12,179 nt of DNA, from contig JAYWGM010000104.1 in assembly GCA_043778225.1 (NCBI GenBank), positions 1-12,179 on the forward strand. Direction: 5' to 3'. The DNA is from Deinococcales bacterium (GTDB taxonomy: Bacteria > Deinococcota > Deinococci > Deinococcales > JAAFIG01). Within the stretch, counting starts at the first letter, position 1. Each line of letters begins with the position of its first letter. The translations under genes were made by a program, and so were the position numbers. Positions 2 through 12,179 of the stretch are shown one piece after another. Below the pieces are notes generated by a model. It was not told the DNA's origin. It did no database searches and saw only the letters and a list, made by a program, of their open reading frames with translations.

Positions 2-109
2 CGTTGCAGGCGTTTGACGAGAGACTTTGAGGGTTTACCGAGTACAACCGAATCTTGGGCTTATTTGGCGAATATTCAGTTGATTTTGAGACGTTTTGAC
101 ACTTTATAA
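2..109 (+). mobile_element. C-terminal fragment of an IS5-family transposase (partial, runs off the window start)
   Basis: Hand translation gives RCRRLTRDFEGLPSTTESWAYLANIQLILRRFDTL*. This resembles the typical IS5-family C-terminus (RxRRLxxDYE...SEAxxYLAxIxLxLRRL). Confidence 0.8.
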
Positions 110-120
110 ACACGCTCTAA
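101..120. repeat. Probable right terminal inverted repeat of the IS5-family element (ends ~117) plus a TAA target site (118-120)
   Basis: ACTTTATAAACACGCTC overlaps the transposase stop; its reverse complement begins GAGCGTGTTTATAAAGT. A GAG-starting end with a TNA target is typical of the IS1031 group. The partner repeat is outside the window. Confidence 0.5.
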
Positions 121-153
121 AAGTACGCTCGTGTGACGCTGTATGAATAACCT
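121..153 (+). promoter_or_regulatory. Type B box (AAGTACGCTCGTGTGACG) + 9 nt + TAACCT -10-like hexamer
   Basis: 121-141 is identical to 2208-2228. ACGCT repeats with an 11-bp period (125, 136), TAACCT is at 148-153, and a GAGG ribosome-binding site at 161-164 precedes the ATG at 170. Confidence 0.65.
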
Positions 154-169
154 AAACCCAGAGGTGATT

Positions 170-301
170 ATGACCAAGGAAATTTTGACCGAAACTCGAG
201 CCAAATACGAGCCGCCGATTCTCGAGAAATTTGTTTTTATGGAAATTACAGGCATTAGTTTACCAGTCGGCACAAACATTCTCGAGGAGGAAAGCAAATG
301 A
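170..301 (+). CDS. 43-aa peptide 1 with lasso-leader-like YxxPxL motif: MTKEILTETRAKYEPPILEKFVFMEITGISLPVGTNILEEESK
   Basis: Hand translation. It has a GAGG ribosome-binding site, its stop overlaps the next start (ATGA 298-301), and its paralog at 2257-2388 shows synonymous differences. Confidence 0.8.
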   Translation: MTKEILTETRAKYEPPILEKFVFMEITGISLPVGTNILEEESK

Positions 302-2097
302 AGCATCTTCTCGTTTTACTTGGCATGACAGCTTTACTTGCCTGTCAGCAAAATCAGTTTTTGCCTGTGCCAACTCGAGTGCTGGGGGTTACTGCCTTGC
401 CATTTGGAGATTCTATTCGTTCCCAAGCAGCTATTGCCGATGCTCAGATTGCTTTTGTGCCGCTTGGACTGGCGAGTGTACTCGATGATGCTGCCTTTAA
501 CTCGCGGTTTATTCGCCGTAGTTTTAGGATTACCAACAATTCAGGTGGTATTCTCACCAACCTGATTTTCCATGCCTACAATGCCCCAGCCAACAGCCAA
601 GGCACAGCCTTAAAGGGCATCACGAATTTTGCTGGGCAACCTGTGCTTAATGCCCAAGAAGCCATTCCTAAGCACGGCATGACGGGCAATGCTTCGTTGA
701 TTGTTGACTCGAGTGCTGCCGATTTACAATTGTTTAGCGAAGCTACGGTTAATGCTGCTCAGACCGAGGCGACCAGTATTTTAGGCGCAAACGATTACTT
801 ATTGGCTTATGGTTTTTTGGTGCAGCAACGCAATGGCGATACCGATTTGGACAGTAACCCACGCACCATAGCGGCTGGTGAGACTGGCACAATTACGATT
901 TCGTATCAGTTGCCCAAAGACTCGAGCAATGCCTATTCGTTCGTGGCGACTTTTAGCCTTCGTACCACCAGCGATGTGGATTTGGTGCAAACCCAAGAAG
1001 AGCAATTGGCTGGTACAACCGCCGGACAACTCGGACTGATTAACTTTAATAAAGTGACTGTACCCGGTGGTCAGGCTTGCGGTATCGTCGGGTCTGGGAT
1101 AACGTTGCGGTTCTTAAATCAATTGCGAATTGCGGGTAAAGTTGGAGGGACTGGCTCAGATACAGCCACCTATGCTTTTAATACGCCAAGTGTTGATGCC
1201 ATTGTGCCAATTAGTTTTTCAACCGAGGCAGTCTTCCGCGAGACCGTTTTGAACGCACCAGACGGAACAGGCATTTGTTTTACACAAAGTTTTGATCTAA
1301 GATTCGCGCCAGTAATAACCTTGGCGAAGAACATCACCATTTATGGCGGCAATAAAACGCTTATTTCTGGCGGTCTTGTGAATCGAATTTTTGAGATTGC
1401 CAGTGGTTTTAAGGTTGCCTTGTACGGCTTTACCATCGCCAACGGTACAAGCAGTACCTCAGCCACAAATTTTGGCGGTGGAGCAATCAGCAACGCTGGT
1501 CACTTAACGCTGGGTGGAATGAAATTCAGTAACAACCGCTTTGCAGGACTTGACTTTGCCACAAGCCCCTTCACACCAGCCAAAGGCGGCGCAATTTATA
1601 ACACTGGGGTACTTAACATTGAGTACAGCGAATTAAAATCGAATACTGCCCAAGCAGGCAGAGGTGCGTTTGGCACGAATGCAATTCTAGGTAGTGGAGT
1701 ATCAGGAACCAATGGAGAACTTGGCGGGGCTGCCTCTGGTGGAGCGATTTTTAATGCAGGTACACTGCAAATAAACTCGAGCCAAGTCTCGGGTAATTCG
1801 GCTATCGGAGGTCGCGGTGGAATTGGTGGTCTCGGGACAACTGTTATTGATCCTAGTGACGGACCACCATTCTTTGGATTTTTGTGCAATGAGCCTTCAG
1901 GCGTTGGTGGGCTTGGTGGTAACGCCATTGGCGGTGGAATCTTCTCGAGTGCCGCCTTTACCAACAATGCCAATGTAACAACCAACACGGTAACAGCCGG
2001 AATTGGTGGTTTTGCTGGTGGACCAAATCCTTGTGCATCACCTGACACCAGTAAGGCGGCTTCTGGGACTGCCAGCAATCCCAATGTTGCACCTTAA
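298..2097 (+). CDS. Lipoprotein 1 (599 aa): shared N-terminal domain plus Gly-rich GGAI/Pmp-like beta-helix repeat domain
   Basis: Signal peptide with lipobox LLAC (Cys16) and a GAGGAGG ribosome-binding site. C-terminal repeats are GGGAISNAG, GGAIYNTG, GGAIFNAG and GGGIFSS, with an FSNN motif. Confidence 0.85.
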   Translation: MKHLLVLLGMTALLACQQNQFLPVPTRVLGVTALPFGDSIRSQAAIADAQIAFVPLGLASVLDDAAFNSRFIRRSFRITNNSGGILTNLIFHAYNAPANSQGTALKGITNFAGQPVLNAQEAIPKHGMTGNASLIVDSSAADLQLFSEATVNAAQTEATSILGANDYLLAYGFLVQQRNGDTDLDSNPRTIAAGETGTITISYQLPKDSSNAYSFVATFSLRTTSDVDLVQTQEEQLAGTTAGQLGLINFNKVTVPGGQACGIVGSGITLRFLNQLRIAGKVGGTGSDTATYAFNTPSVDAIVPISFSTEAVFRETVLNAPDGTGICFTQSFDLRFAPVITLAKNITIYGGNKTLISGGLVNRIFEIASGFKVALYGFTIANGTSSTSATNFGGGAISNAGHLTLGGMKFSNNRFAGLDFATSPFTPAKGGAIYNTGVLNIEYSELKSNTAQAGRGAFGTNAILGSGVSGTNGELGGAASGGAIFNAGTLQINSSQVSGNSAIGGRGGIGGLGTTVIDPSDGPPFFGFLCNEPSGVGGLGGNAIGGGIFSSAAFTNNANVTTNTVTAGIGGFAGGPNPCASPDTSKAASGTASNPNVAP

Positions 2098-2142
2098 TTT
2101 TTATGAGGCTACCCGCTCGAGCTTACGGCACTTGGCGCAGCG

Positions 2143-2174
2143 CGTAACGGCTCGTAACGGCGGCTGCGTAAACT
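2143..2174 (+). promoter_or_regulatory. Type A box (CGTAACG-GCT-CGTAACG) + 9 nt + TAAACT -10-like hexamer
   Basis: These 32 bp are identical to 5520-5551. The heptamer repeats with a 10-bp period and TAAACT is at 2169-2174. Confidence 0.65.
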
Positions 2175-2176
2175 TT

Positions 2177-2205
2177 AGGCACTCGAGAATCAGTCTCGAG
2201 TGCCT
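2177..2205. terminator. Perfect 12-bp stem-loop (AGGCACTCGAGA-atcag-TCTCGAGTGCCT); possible terminator or 5' hairpin
   Basis: Arms at 2177-2188 and 2194-2205 with a 5-nt loop. There is no good U-tract, so terminator function is uncertain. Confidence 0.45.
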
Positions 2206-2207
2206 TG

Positions 2208-2240
2208 AAGTACGCTCGTGTGACGCTGCACTAATAACCT
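2208..2240 (+). promoter_or_regulatory. Type B box + 9 nt + TAACCT -10-like hexamer
   Basis: The box is identical to 121-141, TAACCT is at 2235-2240, and AAACCCAGAGGT follows as in the first copy. Confidence 0.65.
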
Positions 2241-2256
2241 AAACCCAGAGGTAAGT

Positions 2257-2388
2257 ATGACAAAAGAAAAATCTGAAACTCGAGCCAAATACGAGCCGCC
2301 AATTCTCGAGCAGCAAGCAGCTTATGTGGTTTTGACGGGCATCAGTTTACCAATTGGTACAAACATTCTCGAGGAGGAAAGCGAATGA
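2257..2388 (+). CDS. 43-aa peptide 2 with lasso-leader-like YxxPxL motif: MTKEKSETRAKYEPPILEQQAAYVVLTGISLPIGTNILEEESE
   Basis: Hand translation. It has a GAGG ribosome-binding site, an ATGA overlap at 2385-2388 with lipoprotein 2, and is a paralog of 170-301. Confidence 0.8.
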   Translation: MTKEKSETRAKYEPPILEQQAAYVVLTGISLPIGTNILEEESE

Positions 2389-5300
2389 AAAAGTTTTTAC
2401 CAATTCCATTACTATTGTTTGCCTTGCTTGCCTGTCAGCAAACACAAGTCCAACCCATGACGCAAAACCTTGGCACACTCGAGTTGCGGCTTGATAATTC
2501 TGGAAGCACTAAAGGACAAGTGGCTCGAGTGAAAGTTTCGGGGCTACAAACCCAAGGGACGCTGCGTGAAGCCGATGTGACCTTTACAGCTTTGACGACC
2601 GTTGCCACACAAAACGATGGGGCGTTTGATTATGTACAAGCGCAGTTTAGCGTCTTAAACTCGAGCAGTACACCATTTGCTAATTTAACCTTGTACGCCG
2701 TTGCAAAGTCTGGCAACATTGCTGGTACAGCCATTAAAAGCATTACTAATTTTGGCGGACTTACCGATGTCAACGAGCAAACCCGAATTGCCAAGTTGGT
2801 CACGGCTACGCATGGCTTAAACATCTCGAGTACGGGTGCGAGTTTAATTTCTGGGCGTGAGGATATGCAGCTTTTTACGCCAAACGATGTGAATGCTTTA
2901 CAAGCTGACCCTGCTTTGACTTCAAACGGTTTCTCGAGCAACGATAAAGTGCTTGGCTATGGTTTTGTGGCGCGGCGTTGTGTTCCAAATTGCAGCAGTC
3001 CAACTTCGTTTGTTCGGAGTATTCCGGCTGGACAAAGTGGGTTAATCACGATAGCCCTCAGAATTCCACGCAGCAGTGGAACGGCGTACAACTTCATCAT
3101 GACTTTTGCGGTGGTGGATGAACCCATCAATCGAGTCACGCGCAGTGTGTACCCACCTGAAACCCTCAGCGATGCCGAAAGTCGTTTGGTTGGTTTTGGG
3201 GCAAGTTCGAGCAATGAAATCATGCAGTTGGGTTTGGCTCGAGCCACTACGCCAAGCAACAGTTATGTCAATCAAGGTACAGATTTTGTGGCGGTCTCGA
3301 GCAACTCAGAAGATTACACCGCACTTGGTTTGGGACGTTTAAGCAGTGGATTTGATCATTCTTGTGCTTTGACAGCCGTGGGTGCAGCCTATTGTTGGGG
3401 TGGAAATGGATTTGGACAATTGGGCAATAACAGCAAGGACGCAAGCAGCATTCCAGTGCCAGTTGCTGGAAATTTATTGTTCTCGAGTATCAGTGCTGGT
3501 GGCAATACAACCTGTGGTCTGATGCTGGCTGGTGCAGCCTATTGTTGGGGTAGCAATACCGACGGTGGTCTTGGTAATAACAGTCAAACCCAAAGTTTAA
3601 TCCCAGTACCTGTGAGCGGCGGTTTGGTGTTCTCGAGTATTGGGGTCGCTGATACGAATACTGTTTGTGGTTTGACGACTTTTGGTATAGTCGCTTGCTG
3701 GGGTAGTAATGATCGCCAGCAGCTGGGTTTTAACTCAACTGTTCCCAGAAGCCTTACCCCTGTGCTTGTGGCTGGAGGAAGCCAGTTATTCTCGAGCCTG
3801 AGCGTTGGTGGGGCGCATTCGTGCGGCTTGACCGCTTTGGGGGCGGCTTACTGCTGGGGGTTTAATGGCAGTGGGCAATTGGGGGTTGGTACATCTGGTA
3901 CAAACCTTGGGCAACCCACGTTGGTTGGCAATAGTTTAACTTTCTCGAGTATTTACACTGGAACGTACCAGACTTGTGCTTTAACTTCGGATGGTACTGC
4001 CTATTGCTGGGGTCGAAATGATTTTGGTCAACTTGGAACTGCTAACAACACCCAAAGTACCTCGCCGGTGCTGGTCAGTGGCAATCTGCGCTTCTCGAGG
4101 CTAGATGGTGGCGAACAACACACCTGTGGTTTAACCCCGACCAGCACCTTGTACTGTTGGGGTCGTAACAACAATGGCGAATTGGGTACGGGGAACACAA
4201 CCACTACCAATACACCCACTTTGGTTGGTGGTGGGCTGGTATTTGCTGGGTTTTCGACTGGCTGGTTTCACACTTGTGCCATCACCCCAACGGGTCTAAA
4301 GTATTGCTGGGGCAGCAATACAGCCGGGCAAATTGGTAATAACGCAATTTTTGATACCAAAGCACCACGACCAGTCTCTGGTAATCTGACCTTCTCGGGT
4401 GTTTATGCCAACGATAACCATAGCTGTGCTTTAACTTTACTCGACAAAGCCTATTGTTGGGGTACGAATGGCAGTGCGGGGTTACTTGGTAATAACAGCA
4501 CCGTCAATAGCCCAGTGCCTGTCGAAGTCTCGACCACCATAGAATTCTCGAGTTTAACCAGCAATGGCTTTAATCAAACTTGTGGCTTGCAAAAAACCAC
4601 GGGTTTGGCGTATTGCTGGGGGAGTAACACCTATGGTCAATTGGGTACAGGCAATACCACCCGAAGCCTGATACCTATAGCGGTGGTTGCACCAGTTGGA
4701 AGCAGCACCCCTTTGGCTTTCTCGAGTTTGGCGGCTGGCGATGACCACATTTGTGGTATCACCCCGACTCAGGATTTGTACTGCTGGGGTCGGGATAATT
4801 CTGGGCAACTTGGAGACGGGGGAACAAATACCGACAGCAGTCGCCCTGTTAAAATTGGCACGGCTTTTACGGCTGTGACTGGTGGTATAGCCCACACTTG
4901 TGCCATCAGCCCAAGCCCAAATCCGGGCAGTCTGTACTGCTGGGGTCAGAACCGTAGCGGACAACTTGGCGATGGTACAACCGTTGCCAAAAACATACCG
5001 ACGCTGATTGGTTCTGGTTTCTCGAGTGTCAGTGCTGGGAATGGACACACCTGCGCCATACAAACAATCAGTTCGGTAGCAACGACTGTCTGTTGGGGTC
5101 TGAACAGCTTTGGTCAATTGGGTACAGGCAATAACACCATAAGCCTGACCGCCACACCTGTTTCTGGTAATTTTGCTTTTAGCACGGTTGTTGTTGGCGA
5201 AAACCACACCTGTGGTTTACTGACCAATGGTACAGCTTACTGCTGGGGTGATAACGGAAACGGACAAATAGGGAACAACAACACAGTCAATGTCAACACG

Positions 5301-5486
5301 CCAGCTTTGGTCAGTGGCAACTTGAGTTTCTCGGGTTTAAGTGCTTCATGGAAAAATACTTGCGGCATAACCACCACAAATACAGCCTATTGCTGGGGCG
5401 ATAATATCAACGGAAAAATCGGCTTTGTGCTTCAAACCTTGTTCAGTACCCCAACTCGAGATATGGCTTTGAGTTTCAAGCTCTAA
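2385..5486 (+). CDS. Lipoprotein 2 (1033 aa): shared N-terminal domain plus 14 RCC1-type repeats (probably two 7-bladed propellers)
   Basis: Lipobox LLAC (Cys17). From about residue 316 to the end there are 14 repeats of the form HxC...YCWGxNxxGQLG...PxxV, counted by CWG. Confidence 0.92.
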   Translation: MKKFLPIPLLLFALLACQQTQVQPMTQNLGTLELRLDNSGSTKGQVARVKVSGLQTQGTLREADVTFTALTTVATQNDGAFDYVQAQFSVLNSSSTPFANLTLYAVAKSGNIAGTAIKSITNFGGLTDVNEQTRIAKLVTATHGLNISSTGASLISGREDMQLFTPNDVNALQADPALTSNGFSSNDKVLGYGFVARRCVPNCSSPTSFVRSIPAGQSGLITIALRIPRSSGTAYNFIMTFAVVDEPINRVTRSVYPPETLSDAESRLVGFGASSSNEIMQLGLARATTPSNSYVNQGTDFVAVSSNSEDYTALGLGRLSSGFDHSCALTAVGAAYCWGGNGFGQLGNNSKDASSIPVPVAGNLLFSSISAGGNTTCGLMLAGAAYCWGSNTDGGLGNNSQTQSLIPVPVSGGLVFSSIGVADTNTVCGLTTFGIVACWGSNDRQQLGFNSTVPRSLTPVLVAGGSQLFSSLSVGGAHSCGLTALGAAYCWGFNGSGQLGVGTSGTNLGQPTLVGNSLTFSSIYTGTYQTCALTSDGTAYCWGRNDFGQLGTANNTQSTSPVLVSGNLRFSRLDGGEQHTCGLTPTSTLYCWGRNNNGELGTGNTTTTNTPTLVGGGLVFAGFSTGWFHTCAITPTGLKYCWGSNTAGQIGNNAIFDTKAPRPVSGNLTFSGVYANDNHSCALTLLDKAYCWGTNGSAGLLGNNSTVNSPVPVEVSTTIEFSSLTSNGFNQTCGLQKTTGLAYCWGSNTYGQLGTGNTTRSLIPIAVVAPVGSSTPLAFSSLAAGDDHICGITPTQDLYCWGRDNSGQLGDGGTNTDSSRPVKIGTAFTAVTGGIAHTCAISPSPNPGSLYCWGQNRSGQLGDGTTVAKNIPTLIGSGFSSVSAGNGHTCAIQTISSVATTVCWGLNSFGQLGTGNNTISLTATPVSGNFAFSTVVVGENHTCGLLTNGTAYCWGDNGNGQIGNNNTVNVNTPALVSGNLSFSGLSASWKNTCGITTTNTAYCWGDNINGKIGFVLQTLFSTPTRDMALSFKL

Positions 5487-5519
5487 AGTGGTGCGAATCC
5501 TGCTCGAGGCTAAAACCCT

Positions 5520-5551
5520 CGTAACGGCTCGTAACGGCGGCTGCGTAAACT
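5520..5551 (+). promoter_or_regulatory. Type A box + 9 nt + TAAACT -10-like hexamer
   Basis: 32-bp exact copy of 2143-2174, with TAAACT at 5546-5551, upstream of lipoprotein 3. Confidence 0.65.
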
Positions 5552-5586
5552 CGAGCGATGTTGCTACGATACTCGAGGAGTAATTT

Positions 5587-8500
5587 ATGCTCATGAAACC
5601 TTTTTTACTTGTTCAAAGTGCTGTTTTTGTTGTTCTGGTCGGTTGTACGTCCATACCTACACCAGTCGATTCCAATGATAAAGTCCTCGGGCGGCTCGAG
5701 GTGGTTTTCTCGAGCGAAAGTGCAGCACCTAAAGCAGTGTTCTCGAGTGCCAAACTCGGTACGGCGGCGCTAACCGTGCAGCCAGAAGCATCGTTTACGT
5801 TTGTACCACCAACCAGTGTGCTGACTCGAGATGCGTCTGGTATTCGTACCCTTTCGGCAACTTTTGGAATTACTCAGACCAGTGGTAGCACCCTACAAAA
5901 TATCATGCTGGTGGCGTACAACCAAGCTGATAACAATGTTGGTGGAACTGCCGTGAAAAACATTTTTACCTTTGGCGGTTCTGCCTCGAGTAGCAACGCA
6001 CAGAGCATTAAACCAGCCCACGGAACGAATGGCTCGTTAGCGGTTGACCCTTTTCGGGCTGACATGGGTATTTTGTTACCACTCGAGGCAAATAATTTAA
6101 CAGTAGCGGCGCGTAATGCTGGTGTGATTGGCGCATCCGACACCGCCCTCGAGTACGGTTTTATTGCCCGTAGAAGTGCCACTTCGCACCTAAGAAGCAT
6201 TGCCAGTGGCAGCACAGGGCAAGTCACCTTGGCGGTACAGCTTCCTACAGCGCAAGATAATGCGCCAACCACTGCGCCGTATCGTTTTGCCTTGACTTTT
6301 ATTGTCACCACCGACGACACCGATATTGTTACCCAGTCACTCGAGGAGCAAAATAACGATGCCTTGGTTTCGGCTCGAATCGCTGCGATTGGTAAGAGTA
6401 CCACGGTGCGACTTTTGCGCGGCAGTTCTTTTACAGGACGACCACAACAACGCTTGTGTGGGACGCGCTTGGCAACTGGTAACGCGGCGTTCCTGACCGC
6501 CCCGAGTTTGGGTTTTCTGGGTGCGAGACTTAATCCAGACAGTACGTTAACGGCTGATTTCGATGCGCCGTTGGACTCGAGCAGTTTAGGAAATGGTTTG
6601 GTGATCCAGGGTTTACGAAGCGGTAAGCGCCTTGCGGGTCTGAGCTTGGTTGGTAACAGTGTCCAGTTTACACCAACCAGCCCCACCCAAGAATTCAGTC
6701 ATGGCGAGGAGGTGCTGCTGAGTGTTACCAATCAACTTCGCAGTGTCGAAGGTGGTCAGTTATGCGGACAACCAGCCCAAAGTAAATTGTTTCGCATGGA
6801 CTCGAGCCGCAAAGATCAGGTGCTGAGTTACCGCCGCCCAATCAAAATAGCCATGAATGCAGGTACGCTTGGTGGGCAACGAATCAGTGCTTTAGCTGAC
6901 CTGAACAACGACGGTAAAGCCGATTTGGTCACAATAAGTATGCTCGAGAGTAAAGTTTTTACACGCCTTGGTACGGGTTTGGATAATACTTATTTTGGAG
7001 CGCTGACCACAACCAACTTAATTGAGCGACCCAAAGATTTGGATATTGCCGATATGAACAGCGATAGTCTGTTGGATTTGGTGATTCACAATCTTGGCAG
7101 CCCAAGTTCGTTCAGTATTTTGCTTGGAAATGGGCTTGGGGGTTTCTCGAGCCTGACGACCTTTCCTTTGACTGGAACAGGTAATGAGGACGTTTTAGCG
7201 CTAGGTGATGTGACAGGCGATGGTAAACCCGATCTGGTCACACTTGAAAATACATCAATTCGCTTAGAACTTGTGGTTGTTACGCGGGCAAATAGCACCA
7301 TAGCTGGGGCTTTTATACCCACTTTTGGGGCAATTGGTAGACAAATCATTACGATAAATTCAACTACCAATACGTCCCCACCTTCACCACACCGGCTGGT
7401 CATTGATGACCTCGATTTGAACGGGGTTGCAGATACGATCATTGCAATACAAAAAACTTTTGAGGGAAATAATGATTTTACGCTGTTATACAAGTCAATG
7501 AATGGTGGTGCATTCCAATCGCTTGATGCTTTACAAAGTCAAAGCTGTACAATTGCTACAGCAAATTTAGATAACGACCCGCAAAAAGAAATTGGCTTCG
7601 CTTGCAATGGGCAAAACTCCGCCATTCGCTTTCCAAACAATAGTCTTACTTTGCTGCAAAAATCAAATTTGCTCATACTTGAAAACAGTGTATTTGCTGA
7701 CCTAAACGGCGATGGTAAAAAAGAATGGATTACGGTTGGTATCAACAATACCAGTACCTTGGCACAAAGTTCACTCGAGGTGCGTTACTCAGCCGAAGGG
7801 GGGTTATTTGGATTCAGCACCATGATTCCAGGTTTTCTTACCCCACAAGGAGATAATGGCAACCAAAATTTATTTGGGGTTGCTGCGGCTGACCTGAACG
7901 GCGATGGAAAATTAGAAATCGTGGCTGGTGACGATGACGCGGGCGCTCAGGTCTGGCGGCACGAAAAAATTGGTTCGTTCAGAAAAATTTCGGTCAGTGC
8001 ATTAAACCCTCGAGACATCATGGCGGCTGATTTAACCAACGATGGAAAAACCGATATTGCCGTGGCAAACGTACAAACCTCTGGTATTTACTTGCACCGA
8101 GGTACAGACAATGGTTTTGCAACCCAAGAATCCATTGCTGTTCAATCCAGTCAAGTGACCCTGGCTTCGGGTGATGCCAACAATGATGGTCGGGTAGATG
8201 CTTTTGTGGCTGCCGGTTTTGGCTTGGGAATTCAACTCTCGAGCAGGACAGGTGGTTTTACTGCGGGTACAGGTACAGCCGAATCTTTTACTATTCAAGG
8301 CTTAGCTGTCACAGACTTTAACAATGACGGTAATTTAGATGCAATTGTCAGTGGTTTTGGAACTGCGCCGCTTCGTATCCTGCTCGGTGATGGAACAGGT
8401 GCATTTACCACTGGAACAACCCAAGCCAGCACCGATGTCAGTCAATTGATGGTCGCCGACATCAACGCCGATGGCAATATGGACGTACTGGCATTACAAA

Positions 8501-8964
8501 GTACCCAAATCGCGGTGTTCTTAGGTTCAGGAGATGGTAATTTAACCCCTGCCACACCAATAACAACCACGGCTCGAGCCTTTGCTCTAACCGACATCAA
8601 CGCCGATAACACCCCTGATATTATTTACGCCACTGGTACAAACCTCGAGTACCGCTTAAATAGCGCACGTGTTTTCGGCAGTCCTCAAGTCATCAATAGC
8701 CCATTTCAACCTGTTACATCCAACAGCCTAGCCATTGGTGATTTTAACGGTGATGGTTTCAATGACTTGCTTGCTACCAATGGCAATAATGTCATGCTTT
8801 ATGGTGGGCTTTCGACAGGTGGTTTTGCCGTGTTTGCAACAGCTTCTGAGGCTGGTTTAAGCCCAAGCAAATTACAAGCTGCCGATATTAACCAAGATGG
8901 CTTACTAGATGCGTTTGTCACTAACATAACTGAAAATTCGATTACCTTGCTGCTCCGTTTCTAA
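5587..8964 (+). CDS. Lipoprotein 3 (1125 aa; start may be ATG 5593): shared N-terminal domain, Ig-like domain and 14 FG-GAP/VCBS repeats
   Basis: Lipobox LVGC. An Ig-like segment reads FDAPLDSSSL...VQFTPT...GEEVLLSVTNQLRS. Fourteen DxNxDGxxD-like motifs run from DLNNDGKAD to DINQDGLLD. Confidence 0.9.
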   Translation: MLMKPFLLVQSAVFVVLVGCTSIPTPVDSNDKVLGRLEVVFSSESAAPKAVFSSAKLGTAALTVQPEASFTFVPPTSVLTRDASGIRTLSATFGITQTSGSTLQNIMLVAYNQADNNVGGTAVKNIFTFGGSASSSNAQSIKPAHGTNGSLAVDPFRADMGILLPLEANNLTVAARNAGVIGASDTALEYGFIARRSATSHLRSIASGSTGQVTLAVQLPTAQDNAPTTAPYRFALTFIVTTDDTDIVTQSLEEQNNDALVSARIAAIGKSTTVRLLRGSSFTGRPQQRLCGTRLATGNAAFLTAPSLGFLGARLNPDSTLTADFDAPLDSSSLGNGLVIQGLRSGKRLAGLSLVGNSVQFTPTSPTQEFSHGEEVLLSVTNQLRSVEGGQLCGQPAQSKLFRMDSSRKDQVLSYRRPIKIAMNAGTLGGQRISALADLNNDGKADLVTISMLESKVFTRLGTGLDNTYFGALTTTNLIERPKDLDIADMNSDSLLDLVIHNLGSPSSFSILLGNGLGGFSSLTTFPLTGTGNEDVLALGDVTGDGKPDLVTLENTSIRLELVVVTRANSTIAGAFIPTFGAIGRQIITINSTTNTSPPSPHRLVIDDLDLNGVADTIIAIQKTFEGNNDFTLLYKSMNGGAFQSLDALQSQSCTIATANLDNDPQKEIGFACNGQNSAIRFPNNSLTLLQKSNLLILENSVFADLNGDGKKEWITVGINNTSTLAQSSLEVRYSAEGGLFGFSTMIPGFLTPQGDNGNQNLFGVAAADLNGDGKLEIVAGDDDAGAQVWRHEKIGSFRKISVSALNPRDIMAADLTNDGKTDIAVANVQTSGIYLHRGTDNGFATQESIAVQSSQVTLASGDANNDGRVDAFVAAGFGLGIQLSSRTGGFTAGTGTAESFTIQGLAVTDFNNDGNLDAIVSGFGTAPLRILLGDGTGAFTTGTTQASTDVSQLMVADINADGNMDVLALQSTQIAVFLGSGDGNLTPATPITTTARAFALTDINADNTPDIIYATGTNLEYRLNSARVFGSPQVINSPFQPVTSNSLAIGDFNGDGFNDLLATNGNNVMLYGGLSTGGFAVFATASEAGLSPSKLQAADINQDGLLDAFVTNITENSITLLLRF

Positions 8965-8969
8965 GTGGG

Positions 8970-9003
8970 TTCGTAACGCTTCGTAACGGCAGGAGCTTAT
9001 CTT
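8970..9003 (+). promoter_or_regulatory. Type A-like box (TTCGTAACG-C-TTCGTAACG) + 9 nt + TATCTT hexamer, oriented antisense to the regulator
   Basis: Direct repeat at 8970-8978 and 8980-8988. TANNNT at 8998-9003 has the same 9-nt spacing as the other five copies. Confidence 0.5.
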
Positions 9004-11846
9004 GTTTTTTTGGTCAGCATCGGCTCGAGTTTTGGTAAGCCTTGGGCAAAGGCAATCGCTTGGTCTACGCTCATGGCTTGCCCTTGTTGGTAGGCAGCCT
9101 CGGCTTTGGCTTGCCCTAGGGCAGTTCTGGCTTGGTTCTCGAGTTGCAAAAAATGCTGGTACTGATGCTCGGCAAGTGGTGAATCAAGGCGCTCGAGAGC
9201 GACTGTTGTTGCCCCAAAGAGTGTCAGGGCTTGGGCTTGGTAGCCTTGGCGAACCAGTGGTTGGGTCAAAACAAGCATGGCGTAAATGGCATCACGGTAA
9301 CGTCCATCGCGCAGGAGTGGCAGCGCCTCGAGCAGGTGTTGTTGGGCTAAAGCATCGTTGCCTTCGGCTATTGCAGCTTCGCCTAAGCCGTATAACGAAG
9401 CGCCGATGTTGGTTTGGTTGCCAAGCGCTCGGGTCAAGGACAGGCTTTGTTCGATCAATTGGTATTTTTCGGGGCTGGGTGGCAGGATGTCGGCAATGTT
9501 CTGCAAAGCAATGGCTTGTCCGTTGCGGTGTCCACAAATGTTGGCGCATTCAAGGCTCTGTTCAAAGTATTGCTTGGCAATTATTTTGTCGTTGCGGTCA
9601 CAGGCGATTCGTCCAAGGTCATTCAAGGTGTTGACCATGCCATGAACATCATTTTCTTGGCGTTGGATTTGTAGGGCTTGGCGGATGCGAATTTCGGCGG
9701 CTTGAAGTTGTCCGCGCATGATTGCATTTGCGCCCCACCACCCAAGGGCTTTGGCATGAAGCACAGGCTGGTCGAGTATCGAAAAAATTTTGATCGCATT
9801 CTCGAGGTGCTGACAGGCTCGGGAGTACAGTGCCAAAAAATCACCTTGGATACCCAATGCCAATTCGGCTCGAGCCAATAACAAGGCATCGCTGGGTGGT
9901 TGGTACTGGGCAATCGCGGTTTGAAGGGCGTTCCAGGCTTCAAGGGTGCGTGAACGCAAATGAAAATAGCGTGGTAAAGCTGCCAAGGTTCGCAACACCA
10001 AAGCAGGGTCGGTGTTGTATTCAAAGACCGCCATGATATTTTGGTGCTGACTGGTGACTTTGTTGAGCCAAGTGATTTGTTGCGGTCCGCCGCGCAGGGC
10101 TATTTCGGCTTGCTCGGCAAAATGGGCAAAATACTGGGCGTGTGTGCGTTGCAGCTTCTTCAAAGCTGGTTGCTCGAGTTTTTTAAGCGCATAAGTTTGT
10201 ACCAAAGGGTGCAGTTCGTAACGCCCTCCATGTTGATGCAGCAATGACCGTGCCAGCAAACCGAGCAGTGAACGCGCCGAGACCCCCATACCTTCAAGTG
10301 CGGCTGGTCGGTCAAAACCACCTTGGAAGACACTGATGGCGCTCAGGGTTTGGCGCAAGTCATCCTCGAGTAATTCCCATGAATGCTCAAAAACCGTGCG
10401 TAAAGACCGATGCGCCTCGGGAATTTCTGGCTCGTTGACCTCGAGCCATTCGGCATTGGCTTCTAAACCTTCAATCAAGGCTTCTAAACTCAGTTCGCCC
10501 AGCCAAGCGGCAGCCAGTTCTAACCCAAGTGGTAAACCCTGCACAAGTTGACAGATTCGTAAAATACCCGCCAAGGTGTTGGAGTTTAAGGTAAAACCAC
10601 CACGCCGCCGTGCCGCCCGTGCCACAAAAAGTTGTACTGCACTGGCAGCCCGAGCAGCTTCGAGGTCTGGGTTATCTGGGTAAGCCAATCCCCCTAAGGT
10701 CAATACCCATTCGTTGGGGATGTTCAAAGCCACTCGAGAAGTCAAAAGCAAAGTCAGTTGCGGGGCTGCTTCCAGCCAAGCATTGAGCGGTTCGGCAAGC
10801 CCACCAAGATGCTCGACGTTATCCAGCACCAAAAGGACACGACTTTCTTGGAAGTGTTGACCGATTTGTAACCACGGGCTACTGTCAGCCCGTAAGTTAA
10901 AGCCAAGCACAGCAGCGACTGCCAAAGGCACATCATCTGGGTTGCGAATATCGCGCAGGGTCAACCAAATGGCACGGTCAAATAGGTTTTTTTGCTGCTC
11001 GAGAATTTCTTTGGCAAGGGTGGTTTTGCCGATGCCACCGAGTCCACGCAACATCATTAAACGTGTGCCTGCCATAAATTGAGCGCCTATCTCGGCTTGT
11101 TCGGCTTGACGACCGACAAATCGCAAATTTGTATCTGGCTGTACTTGTCCTTTTAAGGTTGCAACCAGCGCCAGTGTTTCGGGTTGAGGTTCGACCCCTA
11201 AATCGGTGCGTAAACGCGCTTGAAACAATTCAAATTGGCGCAGCGCCACTTGGTTTGAGCCAAGCACTGTGGCGTGTTTGAGTAAGCCATGCAAGGCTTC
11301 TTCGTTGTATGGGTCAAGCTCGAGTAACTGCACCAATAAATTTGGCAAACTGGCATCTGGGCTTGAATCGAGTTCTTGGATTCGTCCAATCAGGGCTGTG
11401 CGCCAATCTTCATGCAGTGCGGCACGTTCGGTCTCGAGCCATGCTCCAAAAGCAGTCGGGGTTAAAAGCCCCTCGAGTAACGCACCGCCGTAGACCGCCA
11501 ATGCTTTTTGCCAATCGGCTTGACGAATCGCGGTTCTAAATTGGCTCACATCGGATGGCACACTTAAACGCAGTGCCTTGGTATTGCCCTCTATCGCCTT
11601 AGCCCACTTGAGGTTTTTAGAGCGGTGCAAAAGTTGCCGTAAATTATTACGAGCATCGGACTCGGGTACATCTGCCCATAAAAGCGTGGCGATTTCGGCA
11701 CGTTCGACCCAAGTTTCGGCTGCCGCCAAATAGGCGAATAACCACAGCATTGGGCTGGGTGGAATCGCTGTTTGATCAACCCAGCGTGCCGAACCCAACA
11801 AGCGCAAAGGCACGGCGGTCACAGGCAAAGCAAAAATCCCTGTCAT
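8997..11846 (-). CDS. AfsR/SARP-family large ATP-binding transcriptional regulator (wHTH + BTAD + NB-ARC-like P-loop + TPR repeats)
   Basis: wHTH motifs RAEIATLLW...NNLRQLLHR; BTAD motifs DVSQF...ALAVYGGALLEG...LELDPYNE...LGVEP; Walker A GLGGIGKT, Walker B LLVLDNVEH and GLPLGLELAA; C-terminal TPR-like helices. I placed the start at ATG 11846 because TATCGT lies 7 nt upstream. The open frame extends to 11912. Confidence 0.9.
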   Translation of the reverse strand: MTGIFALPVTAVPLRLLGSARWVDQTAIPPSPMLWLFAYLAAAETWVERAEIATLLWADVPESDARNNLRQLLHRSKNLKWAKAIEGNTKALRLSVPSDVSQFRTAIRQADWQKALAVYGGALLEGLLTPTAFGAWLETERAALHEDWRTALIGRIQELDSSPDASLPNLLVQLLELDPYNEEALHGLLKHATVLGSNQVALRQFELFQARLRTDLGVEPQPETLALVATLKGQVQPDTNLRFVGRQAEQAEIGAQFMAGTRLMMLRGLGGIGKTTLAKEILEQQKNLFDRAIWLTLRDIRNPDDVPLAVAAVLGFNLRADSSPWLQIGQHFQESRVLLVLDNVEHLGGLAEPLNAWLEAAPQLTLLLTSRVALNIPNEWVLTLGGLAYPDNPDLEAARAASAVQLFVARAARRRGGFTLNSNTLAGILRICQLVQGLPLGLELAAAWLGELSLEALIEGLEANAEWLEVNEPEIPEAHRSLRTVFEHSWELLEDDLRQTLSAISVFQGGFDRPAALEGMGVSARSLLGLLARSLLHQHGGRYELHPLVQTYALKKLEQPALKKLQRTHAQYFAHFAEQAEIALRGGPQQITWLNKVTSQHQNIMAVFEYNTDPALVLRTLAALPRYFHLRSRTLEAWNALQTAIAQYQPPSDALLLARAELALGIQGDFLALYSRACQHLENAIKIFSILDQPVLHAKALGWWGANAIMRGQLQAAEIRIRQALQIQRQENDVHGMVNTLNDLGRIACDRNDKIIAKQYFEQSLECANICGHRNGQAIALQNIADILPPSPEKYQLIEQSLSLTRALGNQTNIGASLYGLGEAAIAEGNDALAQQHLLEALPLLRDGRYRDAIYAMLVLTQPLVRQGYQAQALTLFGATTVALERLDSPLAEHQYQHFLQLENQARTALGQAKAEAAYQQGQAMSVDQAIAFAQGLPKLEPMLTKKTR

Positions 11847-11930
11847 TGAATCCACGATAATCAGTATGCAACTTTTGATCACTTTTGCCAAATACGATTG
11901 GCTTTGTGCCAATCCTCGGCTGGTGTCTAA

Positions 11931-11963
11931 AAGTACGTCCGTGTGACGCTCGAGCAGTAATTT
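11931..11963 (+). promoter_or_regulatory. Type B box variant (AAGTACGTCCGTGTGACG) + 9 nt + TAATTT -10-like hexamer
   Basis: 11931-11950 matches 121-140 at 18 of 20 positions. TAATTT is at 11958-11963 and an ATG at 11970 lies at leaderless distance. Confidence 0.6.
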
Positions 11964-12122
11964 ATGCGTATGAAGCCTTTTTTACGTGTTCAAAGTGCTG
12001 TTTTTGCTGTTCTGGTCGGTTGTACGTCCATGCCTACTACACCCGCGCCAGTTGAGTCTAGTCAAGTCCTCGGGCGGCTCGAGGTAGGGCAAACGCACCA
12101 AGTTGAGCTTGCTGTACCCTAA
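11964..12122 (+). pseudogene. IS-truncated fourth lipoprotein gene, paralog of the lipoprotein 3 N-terminus
   Basis: MRMKPFLRVQSAVFAVLVGCTSMPTTPAPVESSQVLGRLEV closely matches MLMKPFLLVQSAVFVVLVGCTSIPTPVDSNDKVLGRLEV. Similarity stops abruptly at ~12085 and the frame ends at TAA 12120-12122. Confidence 0.8.
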
Positions 12123-12179
12123 AGAATGATTATCAATATCATCGAACATTTCAGTACCCTCGAAGACGCTCGTCGTGAC
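12085..12179 (+). mobile_element. Left end of an ISAs1-family-like element and start of its transposase (ATG 12126; partial)
   Basis: TAGGGCAAACGCA begins at the homology breakpoint and resembles YAGGG-type ISAs1 ends. The ORF MIINIIEHFSTLEDARRD resembles the ISAs1 N-terminal motif EHFxxLEDPR. Only 18 codons are visible. Confidence 0.65.

Follow-up and report, generated by a model that had tools for sequence, protein, structure and literature searches.

The large SARP activator AfsR of Streptomyces coelicolor binds repeats located 8 nt upstream of the -10 element (accessible text of PMC11301090), and most AfsR-like proteins are, according to the accessible part of a preprint, without known targets (bioRxiv 2026.09.02.748808). 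The precursors of linear polyphosphorylated peptides (LPP; lppA-K-B-S-D-N), as described in the available portion of PMC13381572, are cut after a Thr and phosphorylated at core Ser3, and their products are free linear phosphopeptides. In Deinococcus radiodurans, the nuclease DRB0067 is reported to be a secreted protein that is attached to the hexagonal layer and set free after irradiation (available part of PMC3554781). Here we report on a contig of 12,179 nucleotides (JAYWGM010000104.1, or C104), studied in its entirety and called the window below, from the genome of a Deinococcales bacterium (4.0 Mb in 107 contigs, 89% complete), which encodes two short YxxPxL peptides, three complete lipoproteins and the 5' end of a fourth (LP1 to LP4), and an AfsR-like regulator. 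A literature search returned no paper on this combination of regulator, peptide and lipoprotein, supplements, a possible home of genome-mining tables, lying outside that search. Taken as a whole, our results lean somewhat toward a conserved peptide-lipoprotein cassette that has been placed under lineage-specific SARP control.

Both 43-residue peptides proposed by the initial annotation of the window were confirmed, and the module proved wider than the contig, with 15 peptides and 22 genes for the shared lipoprotein domain in the genome. Four ortholog pairs (96 codons) differ by 21 synonymous and 9 non-synonymous changes, which indicates that the peptides are coding. Their consensus reads YxxPxLExxxxWxxxTGxSxPIG, with a leader geometry of Y0-P3-L5-T15-S17/19 in which T15 is kept in 56 of 74 peptides and a Ser occurs at positions 17-19 in 59; this spacing matches the LPP consensus as far as it is given in the available text of PMC13381572. 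Compared with LPP, the YxxPxL leader, the Thr15/Ser18 spacing, a discrete RiPP recognition element (RRE; RiPP, a peptide made on ribosomes and modified after translation), an HprK-like kinase, an NTP transferase and the lack of a cyclase are all shared, whereas the protease is here a lasso-type B2 protein fused to a nucleotidyltransferase instead of the signal-peptidase-like LppS (same source, in part). Moreover, no recurrent transporter is found here, and precursor genes are scattered, each of them next to a lipoprotein gene, with as many as 15-16 in one genome; the main text of PMC13381572, in the part available, mentions neither Deinococcus nor lipoproteins. Lasso peptides of the paeninodin type likewise have the same leader motif, B1/RRE, B2, kinase and nucleotidyltransferase, but a macrolactam cyclase was absent from the recurrent neighbours at 25 machinery loci, with only short partial PF00733 matches in five genomes, and Asp or Glu at core position 7-9 occurs in only 10 of 74 peptides and in neither peptide of the window. 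Several peptides stop right past the core, so an acidic tail is dispensable. The lasso leader family NF033521 (lasso_leader_L3) was matched by 8 of 74 peptides, peptide 2 of the window not being among them. The peptides would thus work like LPP or lasso precursors while being neither.

Candidate enzymes are encoded on other contigs of the same genome and would act in trans: a stand-alone PqqD/RRE gene overlapping a weakly HprK-like gene on C64, an NTP_transf_5-B2 fusion on C44, and a second RRE/B2 set on C92. In the proposed sequence of events, the stand-alone RRE would bind the YxxPxL motif of the precursor, the HprK-like kinase would phosphorylate the conserved core Ser, and the fusion protein would remove the leader near the conserved Thr and might add a further group. 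Their distribution was followed in a phylum survey of 301 genomes assigned to families f1 to f5 (our labels; f1 is the source genome's own family, and f2 is inferred to be Deinococcaceae since f2 proteins match named Deinococcus records). Among the 112 genomes of f2, the lipoprotein domain was found in 60, the fusion in 55 and the peptide in 54, all three in 50 and none in 48; peptide and fusion occur together in 53 genomes, one of them alone in 1 and 2, and the domain alone in 8. In f3 the fusion is present in three of four genomes with the domain and in none of the 58 others, and in f5 seven genomes with the domain and without the fusion gave no peptide match. Of 18 f2 loci picked for a peptide next to a fusion gene, all 18 carry a domain lipoprotein (E <= 2e-7), the extracellular nuclease of D. 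radiodurans among them, and 17 carry RRE and kinase. This co-occurrence, together with the leader geometry, strongly supports the suggestion of the initial annotation that the peptides are RiPP-like substrates, and they are very probably RiPP-type precursors matured by RRE, kinase and fusion protein to a short linear core of the xS[L/V]PIG type.

In the source genome, 13 peptide genes lie upstream of 12 of the 22 domain genes (on C49, two in tandem precede one lipoprotein, L004:2368-2657), one follows directly after another domain gene, and one precedes a lipoprotein without the domain. For comparison we took 80 regions around the best-scoring of the 150 domain matches listed (229 further matches lay beyond these), a sample biased to close homologs, which contains 112 domain genes: 83 first in their cluster, 24 second in a tandem and 5 at contig edges. 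An upstream peptide was recognised at 48 of the 83 first genes (13 of 17 in g1, 14 of 22 in other f1, 19 of 35 in f2, 2 of 2 in f3, 0 of 7 in f5) and at 2 of the 24 second genes, scores that are not independent because the peptide profile was trained on the same loci. Nine more foreign peptides lie elsewhere, six directly downstream of the domain gene and three several hundred bases upstream. It could be argued from the ATGA overlap of both window peptides with the next start codon that such frames are cis-acting leaders that couple or tune lipoprotein translation. Gene order is, however, free, the conservation of peptide residues tracks RRE/B2 geometry, and peptide presence tracks the enzymes, so that the peptides are not cis leaders by any probable reading, and we regard this explanation as highly improbable.

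The three lipobox proteins with a constant N-terminal domain and variable cargo, as initially annotated, were confirmed by domain matches and by blastp (28-39% pairwise identity, E 1e-21 to 4e-26). Their cargo differs: LP2 carries RCC1 repeats, LP3 FG-GAP repeats, and LP1 no family over the cut-off, its GGAIxN motifs presumably forming a beta-helix-like structure. A profile built from these three proteins with one iteration recovered the domain, about 260 residues long, at the N-terminus of 22 open reading frames (ORFs) of the genome, combined with FG-GAP, RCC1, beta-helix, DUF5122, P-domain, exonuclease-endonuclease-phosphatase or no cargo; the cargo is thus not confined to the adhesin type proposed at the outset, since nucleases, beta-helices and P-domains are found too. 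In the phylum survey the domain was detected in 88 of 301 genomes (8 of 9 in f1, 60 of 112 in f2, 4 of 62 in f3, 0 of 14 in f4, 15 of 103 in f5), absences being soft since eight candidates were scored per genome, and the profile matched 839 cluster representatives at E <= 0.001. A structural model based on 110 sequences (19 from the source genome and 91 of the 150 matches listed, shorter ones being chosen) predicts a beta-sandwich fold plus a small alpha/beta tail (pLDDT 89, pTM 0.89), and a Leu-x-x-Gln/Arg motif is kept in a disordered loop past the first strand (Gln in 69, Arg in 24 of 110).

No family for the domain was returned by searches of Pfam, NCBIfam, PDB sequences and the ESM Atlas, nor any Foldseek match to the model at E <= 1e-3, known folds such as TasA, CBM2/3, DUF4352-like and VP37 included; the best VIA comparison had a Z of 5.8 (root-mean-square deviation 3.9, 121 aligned residues). 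DUF5067, TasA, CBM and VP37 were considered as its family and not accepted, their matches being weak, and a missing match does not equal a new fold. Paralogs also matched TcdB_toxin_midN and Toxin_R_bind_N, within their FG-GAP and LamG repeats, and we take these for cross-matches. The lipoproteins consist of a lipid anchor, a constant immunoglobulin-like beta-sandwich domain and interchangeable cargo, and they would be displayed at the cell surface. In f2, a domain-only lipoprotein of about 350 residues often stands ahead of a long one with domain and cargo (17 tandem cases; L065, L068, L069, L073-L075, L081-L083, L085, L086, L092; L171), which suggests an anchor/tip or oligomer pair. Such a tandem pair in D. 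gobiensis is followed by two small "tail fiber" genes.

A probable surface location of the lipoproteins is supported by D. radiodurans. On its plasmid MP1, the ExeM/NucH nuclease gene DR_RS15795 contains the domain (E 3.6e-8), is preceded by an unannotated peptide ORF and is flanked by the divergent B2 gene DR_RS15790; B2 gene, peptide, nuclease gene, second peptide and second domain protein lie together, with no regulator adjacent. The two peptide ORFs, at about 78.6 kb and 82.5 kb of NC_000958.1 (L172), precede the nuclease gene and DR_RS15800; neither is annotated. We infer that DR_RS15795 is DRB0067, whose account in the available part of PMC3554781 mentions neither the shared domain nor the peptide or the B2 gene. 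Since D. radiodurans carries the cassette before a well-studied nuclease, simple knockouts could decide whether RiPP chemistry serves surface display. An unnamed surface-protein domain with at least 839 clusters is thereby tied, across Deinococcus, to cyclase-less RiPP enzymes annotated as "lasso B2", and the genomic associations suggest that machinery for peptide modification is connected with the bacterial cell surface in a way not yet described.

The regulator was recognised initially as a BTAD-NB-ARC-TPR protein, and this architecture holds on the minus strand. A model of its N-terminal 235 residues (pLDDT 91) matches EmbR and AfsR in Foldseek (E 4e-8 to 7e-7), and the SARP winged helix-turn-helix plus BTAD fold is shared with AfsR/large SARP structures (PDB 8k60, 8hvr) and EmbR (2ff4) over about 250 columns, the sequence profile having covered only the BTAD half (E 2e-12). 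NB-ARC (PF00931, 33.2 bits against a cut-off of 23.5) has Walker A and B motifs invariant in 12 sequences, the C-terminal TPRs exceed the TPR_12 cut-off, and both regions align with AfsR (E 4e-44). The AfsR equivalog NF053617, in contrast, scored 53 bits against a cut-off of 1430; the protein is thus not an ortholog of AfsR, which it probably resembles in its mode of action. It differs further from AfsR in its Deinococcota host and in its targets, which are surface or secreted proteins and not afsS or antibiotic clusters, and the small ORFs here are RiPP-type precursors, not AfsS-like. The genome contains 35 BTAD-profile matches. In an alignment of window positions 9000-11846 with L147-L155 and L016, SARP and NB-ARC regions of the regulator and its ortholog in G205 are 70-73% identical and the TPRs 36%, while three orthologs show 46-48% TPR identity to a paralog from which their SARP domains differ far more (27-30% identity). 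TPR sensors are therefore swapped between regulators that retain one and the same DNA-binding domain, as in the sensor shuffling of NOD-like receptors (NLRs).

Could the peptides be ligands of the neighbouring regulator's TPRs, in a positive feedback as in RRNPP proteins or AfsR-AfsS? Its TPRs resemble peptide-binding TPRs, and domain genes of the source genome are enriched near BTAD regulators: 7 of the 22 have one at no more than 1 kb, compared with 7 of 68 other lipoprotein genes. Elsewhere, however, a full-size regulator occurs within 3 kb of only 6 of the 112 foreign domain genes (8 counting short ones) and at none of the 25 machinery loci, the TPRs of Box A orthologs (see below) are 25-36% identical to those of the window regulator while the peptide cores are conserved, and three of the seven genomes with an ortholog showed no Box A ahead of any peptide or domain gene. 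Given how rarely the regulator stands beside domain lipoproteins elsewhere, this idea, raised in the initial annotation, is quite improbable, and the fixed four-part system envisaged there is not supported either: profile searches across genomes found peptide, domain and enzymes together and the regulator mostly apart. The regulator would control surface genes at large in a particular lineage, and the peptide belongs with lipoprotein and enzymes.

Direct repeats followed by a TAnnnT hexamer do stand ahead of every unit, as initially noted, but they fall into two classes and not into one pattern. Box A, with a 10-bp period, occurs in three copies in 4.0 Mb, all in the window (reversed control 0). 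Orthologs of the regulator are present in 7 of 19 f1 genomes at 44-100% identity (next best 39%), and Box A with at most one mismatch was found in the same seven genomes, which represent three genera, and in none of the 12 others (reversed control 0); this identity of distributions makes Box A the likely binding site of the regulator. Its distance from the ortholog is no more than about 4 kb in five of six foreign genomes. Genes for domain lipoproteins follow Box A in four of the seven genomes, namely G000, G205, G255 and G309 (at two loci), and a peptide is present at three of the foreign loci. In G304, G243, G255, G296 and G309, Box A stands ahead of an operon for a 40-residue lipopeptide and a collagen-like protein, in some cases with DUF3455. 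As with AfsR, tandem repeats lie just upstream of the -10 without a consensus -35. The regulator would bind them over the -35 region and recruit RNA polymerase once its TPRs sense a signal, and there are good grounds to think that through Box A it switches on LP2 with its peptide, and LP3.

The GTAAC core of Box A resembles the -35 elements of extracytoplasmic function (ECF) sigma factors, and its physical linkage to the regulator in five of six foreign genomes would also be expected if an ECF promoter, or another factor's site, merely travelled with the regulator in one DNA block. Yet the tandem repeat is kept in all 11 Box A copies tabulated (TAnnnT itself having been required by the search), the CGT of ECF-type -10 elements is not conserved, G309 has Box A copies on another contig, and throughout the genome this repeat/-10 geometry is met again next to further BTAD regulators, with different repeat words, all of which leaves this alternative improbable. 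An integron-like cassette was also considered for Box A, which follows every lipoprotein stop, and was dropped, as every copy has a -10 hexamer and a gene follows in relatives.

Box B, with an 11-bp period, was found in 13 of 19 genomes. Eight of these belong to the 12 that have no ortholog of the regulator and show as many as 12 sites each, whereas two of the seven genomes with an ortholog have no Box B. Because this spread is unlike that of the ortholog, Box B belongs to another factor and is in all likelihood read by a separate genus-wide activator, on which LP1 and LP4 would depend, LP2 having two inputs. The surface regulon proposed initially under the regulator is thus supported for Box A, which tracks the orthologs exactly and precedes surface or secreted genes, and not for Box B. 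In the source genome TGTGACGCT has 38 copies, followed by TAnnnT at exactly 7 nt in 10 of them and in at most one at any other spacing from 4 to 11. Among 15 Box B loci, two had a large BTAD regulator within the stretch retrieved and five the same small conserved ORF downstream; in five g4 genomes a single Box B site precedes the same conserved ORF of about 71 residues, and in g1 genomes Box B also stands before a conserved ORF of about 113 residues (L156-L160 of g4; C48, about 40694, in the source genome).

The repeat/-10 geometry is also seen, with different repeat words, at about 40 intergenic sites of the genome, most of them ahead of signal-peptide genes and many next to BTAD paralogs; such sites lie on C28, C17, C90, C60, C75, C83, C48, C51, C57 and C107. 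A genome-wide ACG-repeat pattern gave 70 matches; 23 other spacings gave 25-46, and one more, which corresponds to a skipped repeat, gave 63, so that this count is modest evidence only. A generic promoter and terminator scan stayed at chance level (12 vs 11.1; 19 vs 17.0). The different repeat words beside different BTAD paralogs could possibly constitute a readable recognition code. Promoter-level regulation by Box A and the regulator appears to be family-specific, and the core of peptide, lipoprotein and enzymes phylum-wide. For an NLR-type activator outside Actinobacteria, the locus provides a likely operator at the level of sequence, together with a surface-protein regulon and evidence of sensor swapping.

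Several observations weigh against the cassette explanation and have to be set beside it. The surveyed genomes are kin to each other and 57-94% complete, and the co-occurrence counts are therefore not independent tests. The kinase match stays below the cut-off (HprK_rel_B E 0.043 for the protein of the source genome, HprK_rel_A E 2e-9 for a homolog), and two fragmented assemblies, G205 and G259, have peptides and no fusion match. No upstream peptide is found at 10 of 22 domain genes in the source genome and at 35 of 83 foreign first genes, and on C75 a peptide stands ahead of a lipoprotein in which the domain is absent. Nor is there a signal sequence in the peptide, although its partner lipoprotein is exported. 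The domain model is confident without the peptide, and the domain persists in genomes without a B2 family match (0 of 5; 0 of 3 g12 genomes), hence the peptide is not needed for folding. On the side of the regulator, the F/Y-HD latch, an autoinhibition motif of AfsR according to the available part of bioRxiv 2026.09.02.748808, reads His-Pro, with Asp replaced by Pro or Ser and His kept in all six aligned Box A orthologs, and the AfsR motif spans 22 bp in the same partial source, against the 10-bp period of Box A.

Some of these points would fit a matured peptide that is a free product, a signal or a storage phosphopeptide co-expressed with the lipoprotein and never touching it, as the free products of LPP and the variable peptide tails would also suggest. 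No exporter recurs, however, beside the 25 machinery loci (SpI-like peptidases and MsbA-like exporters were absent from the clusters recurring in at least 4 of 25 loci, as judged by clustering and without a family scan), and co-expression alone does not call for a 1:1 pairing that recurs 13 times in the source genome, with cargo that varies and gene order that may be reversed. We consider a free product unlikely; it is quite conceivable, and our leading guess, that the matured peptide acts on its partner lipoprotein, binding the constant domain at export, anchoring or release in an accessory, non-essential role. A more far-reaching and rather tentative proposal is that in Deinococcota a RiPP assembly line of RRE, kinase and nucleotidyltransferase-B2 yields no free natural product and instead matures small dedicated partner peptides, which bind or are attached to the constant domain and govern display or release, with NLR-type activators with swappable sensors and a code of repeat words picking the cassettes.

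Table 1. Features of the window, with positions on its 12,179 nucleotides.
Feature	Position	Strand	Remarks
End of multi-copy element	24..120		Assembly break, outside the module; matches 6 other contig ends; depth ~10x
Box B promoter	121..153	+	11-bp-period repeat, 7 nt, -10-like TAACCT at 148-153
Peptide 1	170..301	+	43 aa; YxxPxLE...TGxS leader type; stop overlaps LP1 start
LP1	298..2097	+	599 aa; lipobox Cys16; shared N-terminal domain 343-1083; Gly-rich cargo with three GGAIxN motifs
Box A promoter	2143..2174	+	10-bp-period CGTAACGG repeat; TAAACT 9 nt past ACG
Box B promoter	2208..2240	+	Second promoter of unit 2
Peptide 2	2257..2388	+	43 aa; stop overlaps LP2 start
LP2	2385..5486	+	1033 aa; lipobox Cys17; shared domain 2433-3248 (model pLDDT 89); RCC1 beta-propeller repeats
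Box A promoter of LP3	5520..5551	+	
LP3	5587..8964	+	1125 aa; lipobox Cys20; shared domain 5644-6435; FG-GAP repeats; without peptide gene
Orphan Box A	8972..9003	+	Toward 3' end of regulator, no gene behind; probable relic promoter
AfsR-like regulator	8997..11846	-	949 aa; alternative TTG start 11912; SARP winged helix-turn-helix and BTAD, NB-ARC with Walker A/B, LHP at HD latch, TPR sensor
Box B promoter of unit 4	11931..11963	+	Within divergent gap
LP4, 5' end	11964..12084	+	LP3 paralog interrupted by insertion sequence; frame continues to 12122 inside it; rest at end of C35
Terminal inverted repeat	12085..12179		Start of multi-copy insertion sequence

The orphan Box A is probably a relic, because in G205 a lipopeptide-collagen operon occupies the same position, in the gap between lipoprotein and regulator. 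The lipopeptide (about 40 residues, with a three-Trp tail), the collagen-like secreted protein and often DUF3455 are found at L147:5448-6800, L148, L150, L151, L153:8320-9200 and L154, and a similar lipopeptide/collagen pair lies on C12 of the source genome at about 3400-3900, without Box A.

The fourth unit had been taken for truncated, and only its 5' end is indeed present in the window; the full-length paralog was split at about 12084 by a multi-copy insertion sequence, and its remainder begins C35. The terminal inverted repeat from about 12084 gave 17 matches, 16 of them near contig ends, and read depth over the element is about ten-fold raised (256 vs 29 and 131 vs 12; two runs of one study), a contig there spanning the junction. 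The end of C35 shows the second terminal repeat and a duplicated target site, along with a stretch of 689 bp whose identity to LP3, counted from the corresponding position, is 86%, which identifies unit 4 as a paralog interrupted by the insertion sequence. This paralog carries FG-GAP and LamG cargo and is followed by another convergent regulator. The same insertion sequence, which may be ISAs1-like, also cuts domain genes on C17 and C3. An Rfam scan gave no matches. In the whole genome, CTCGAG occurs 6.2 times per kb, and GGCGCC, GACGTC and several other hexamers are nearly absent.

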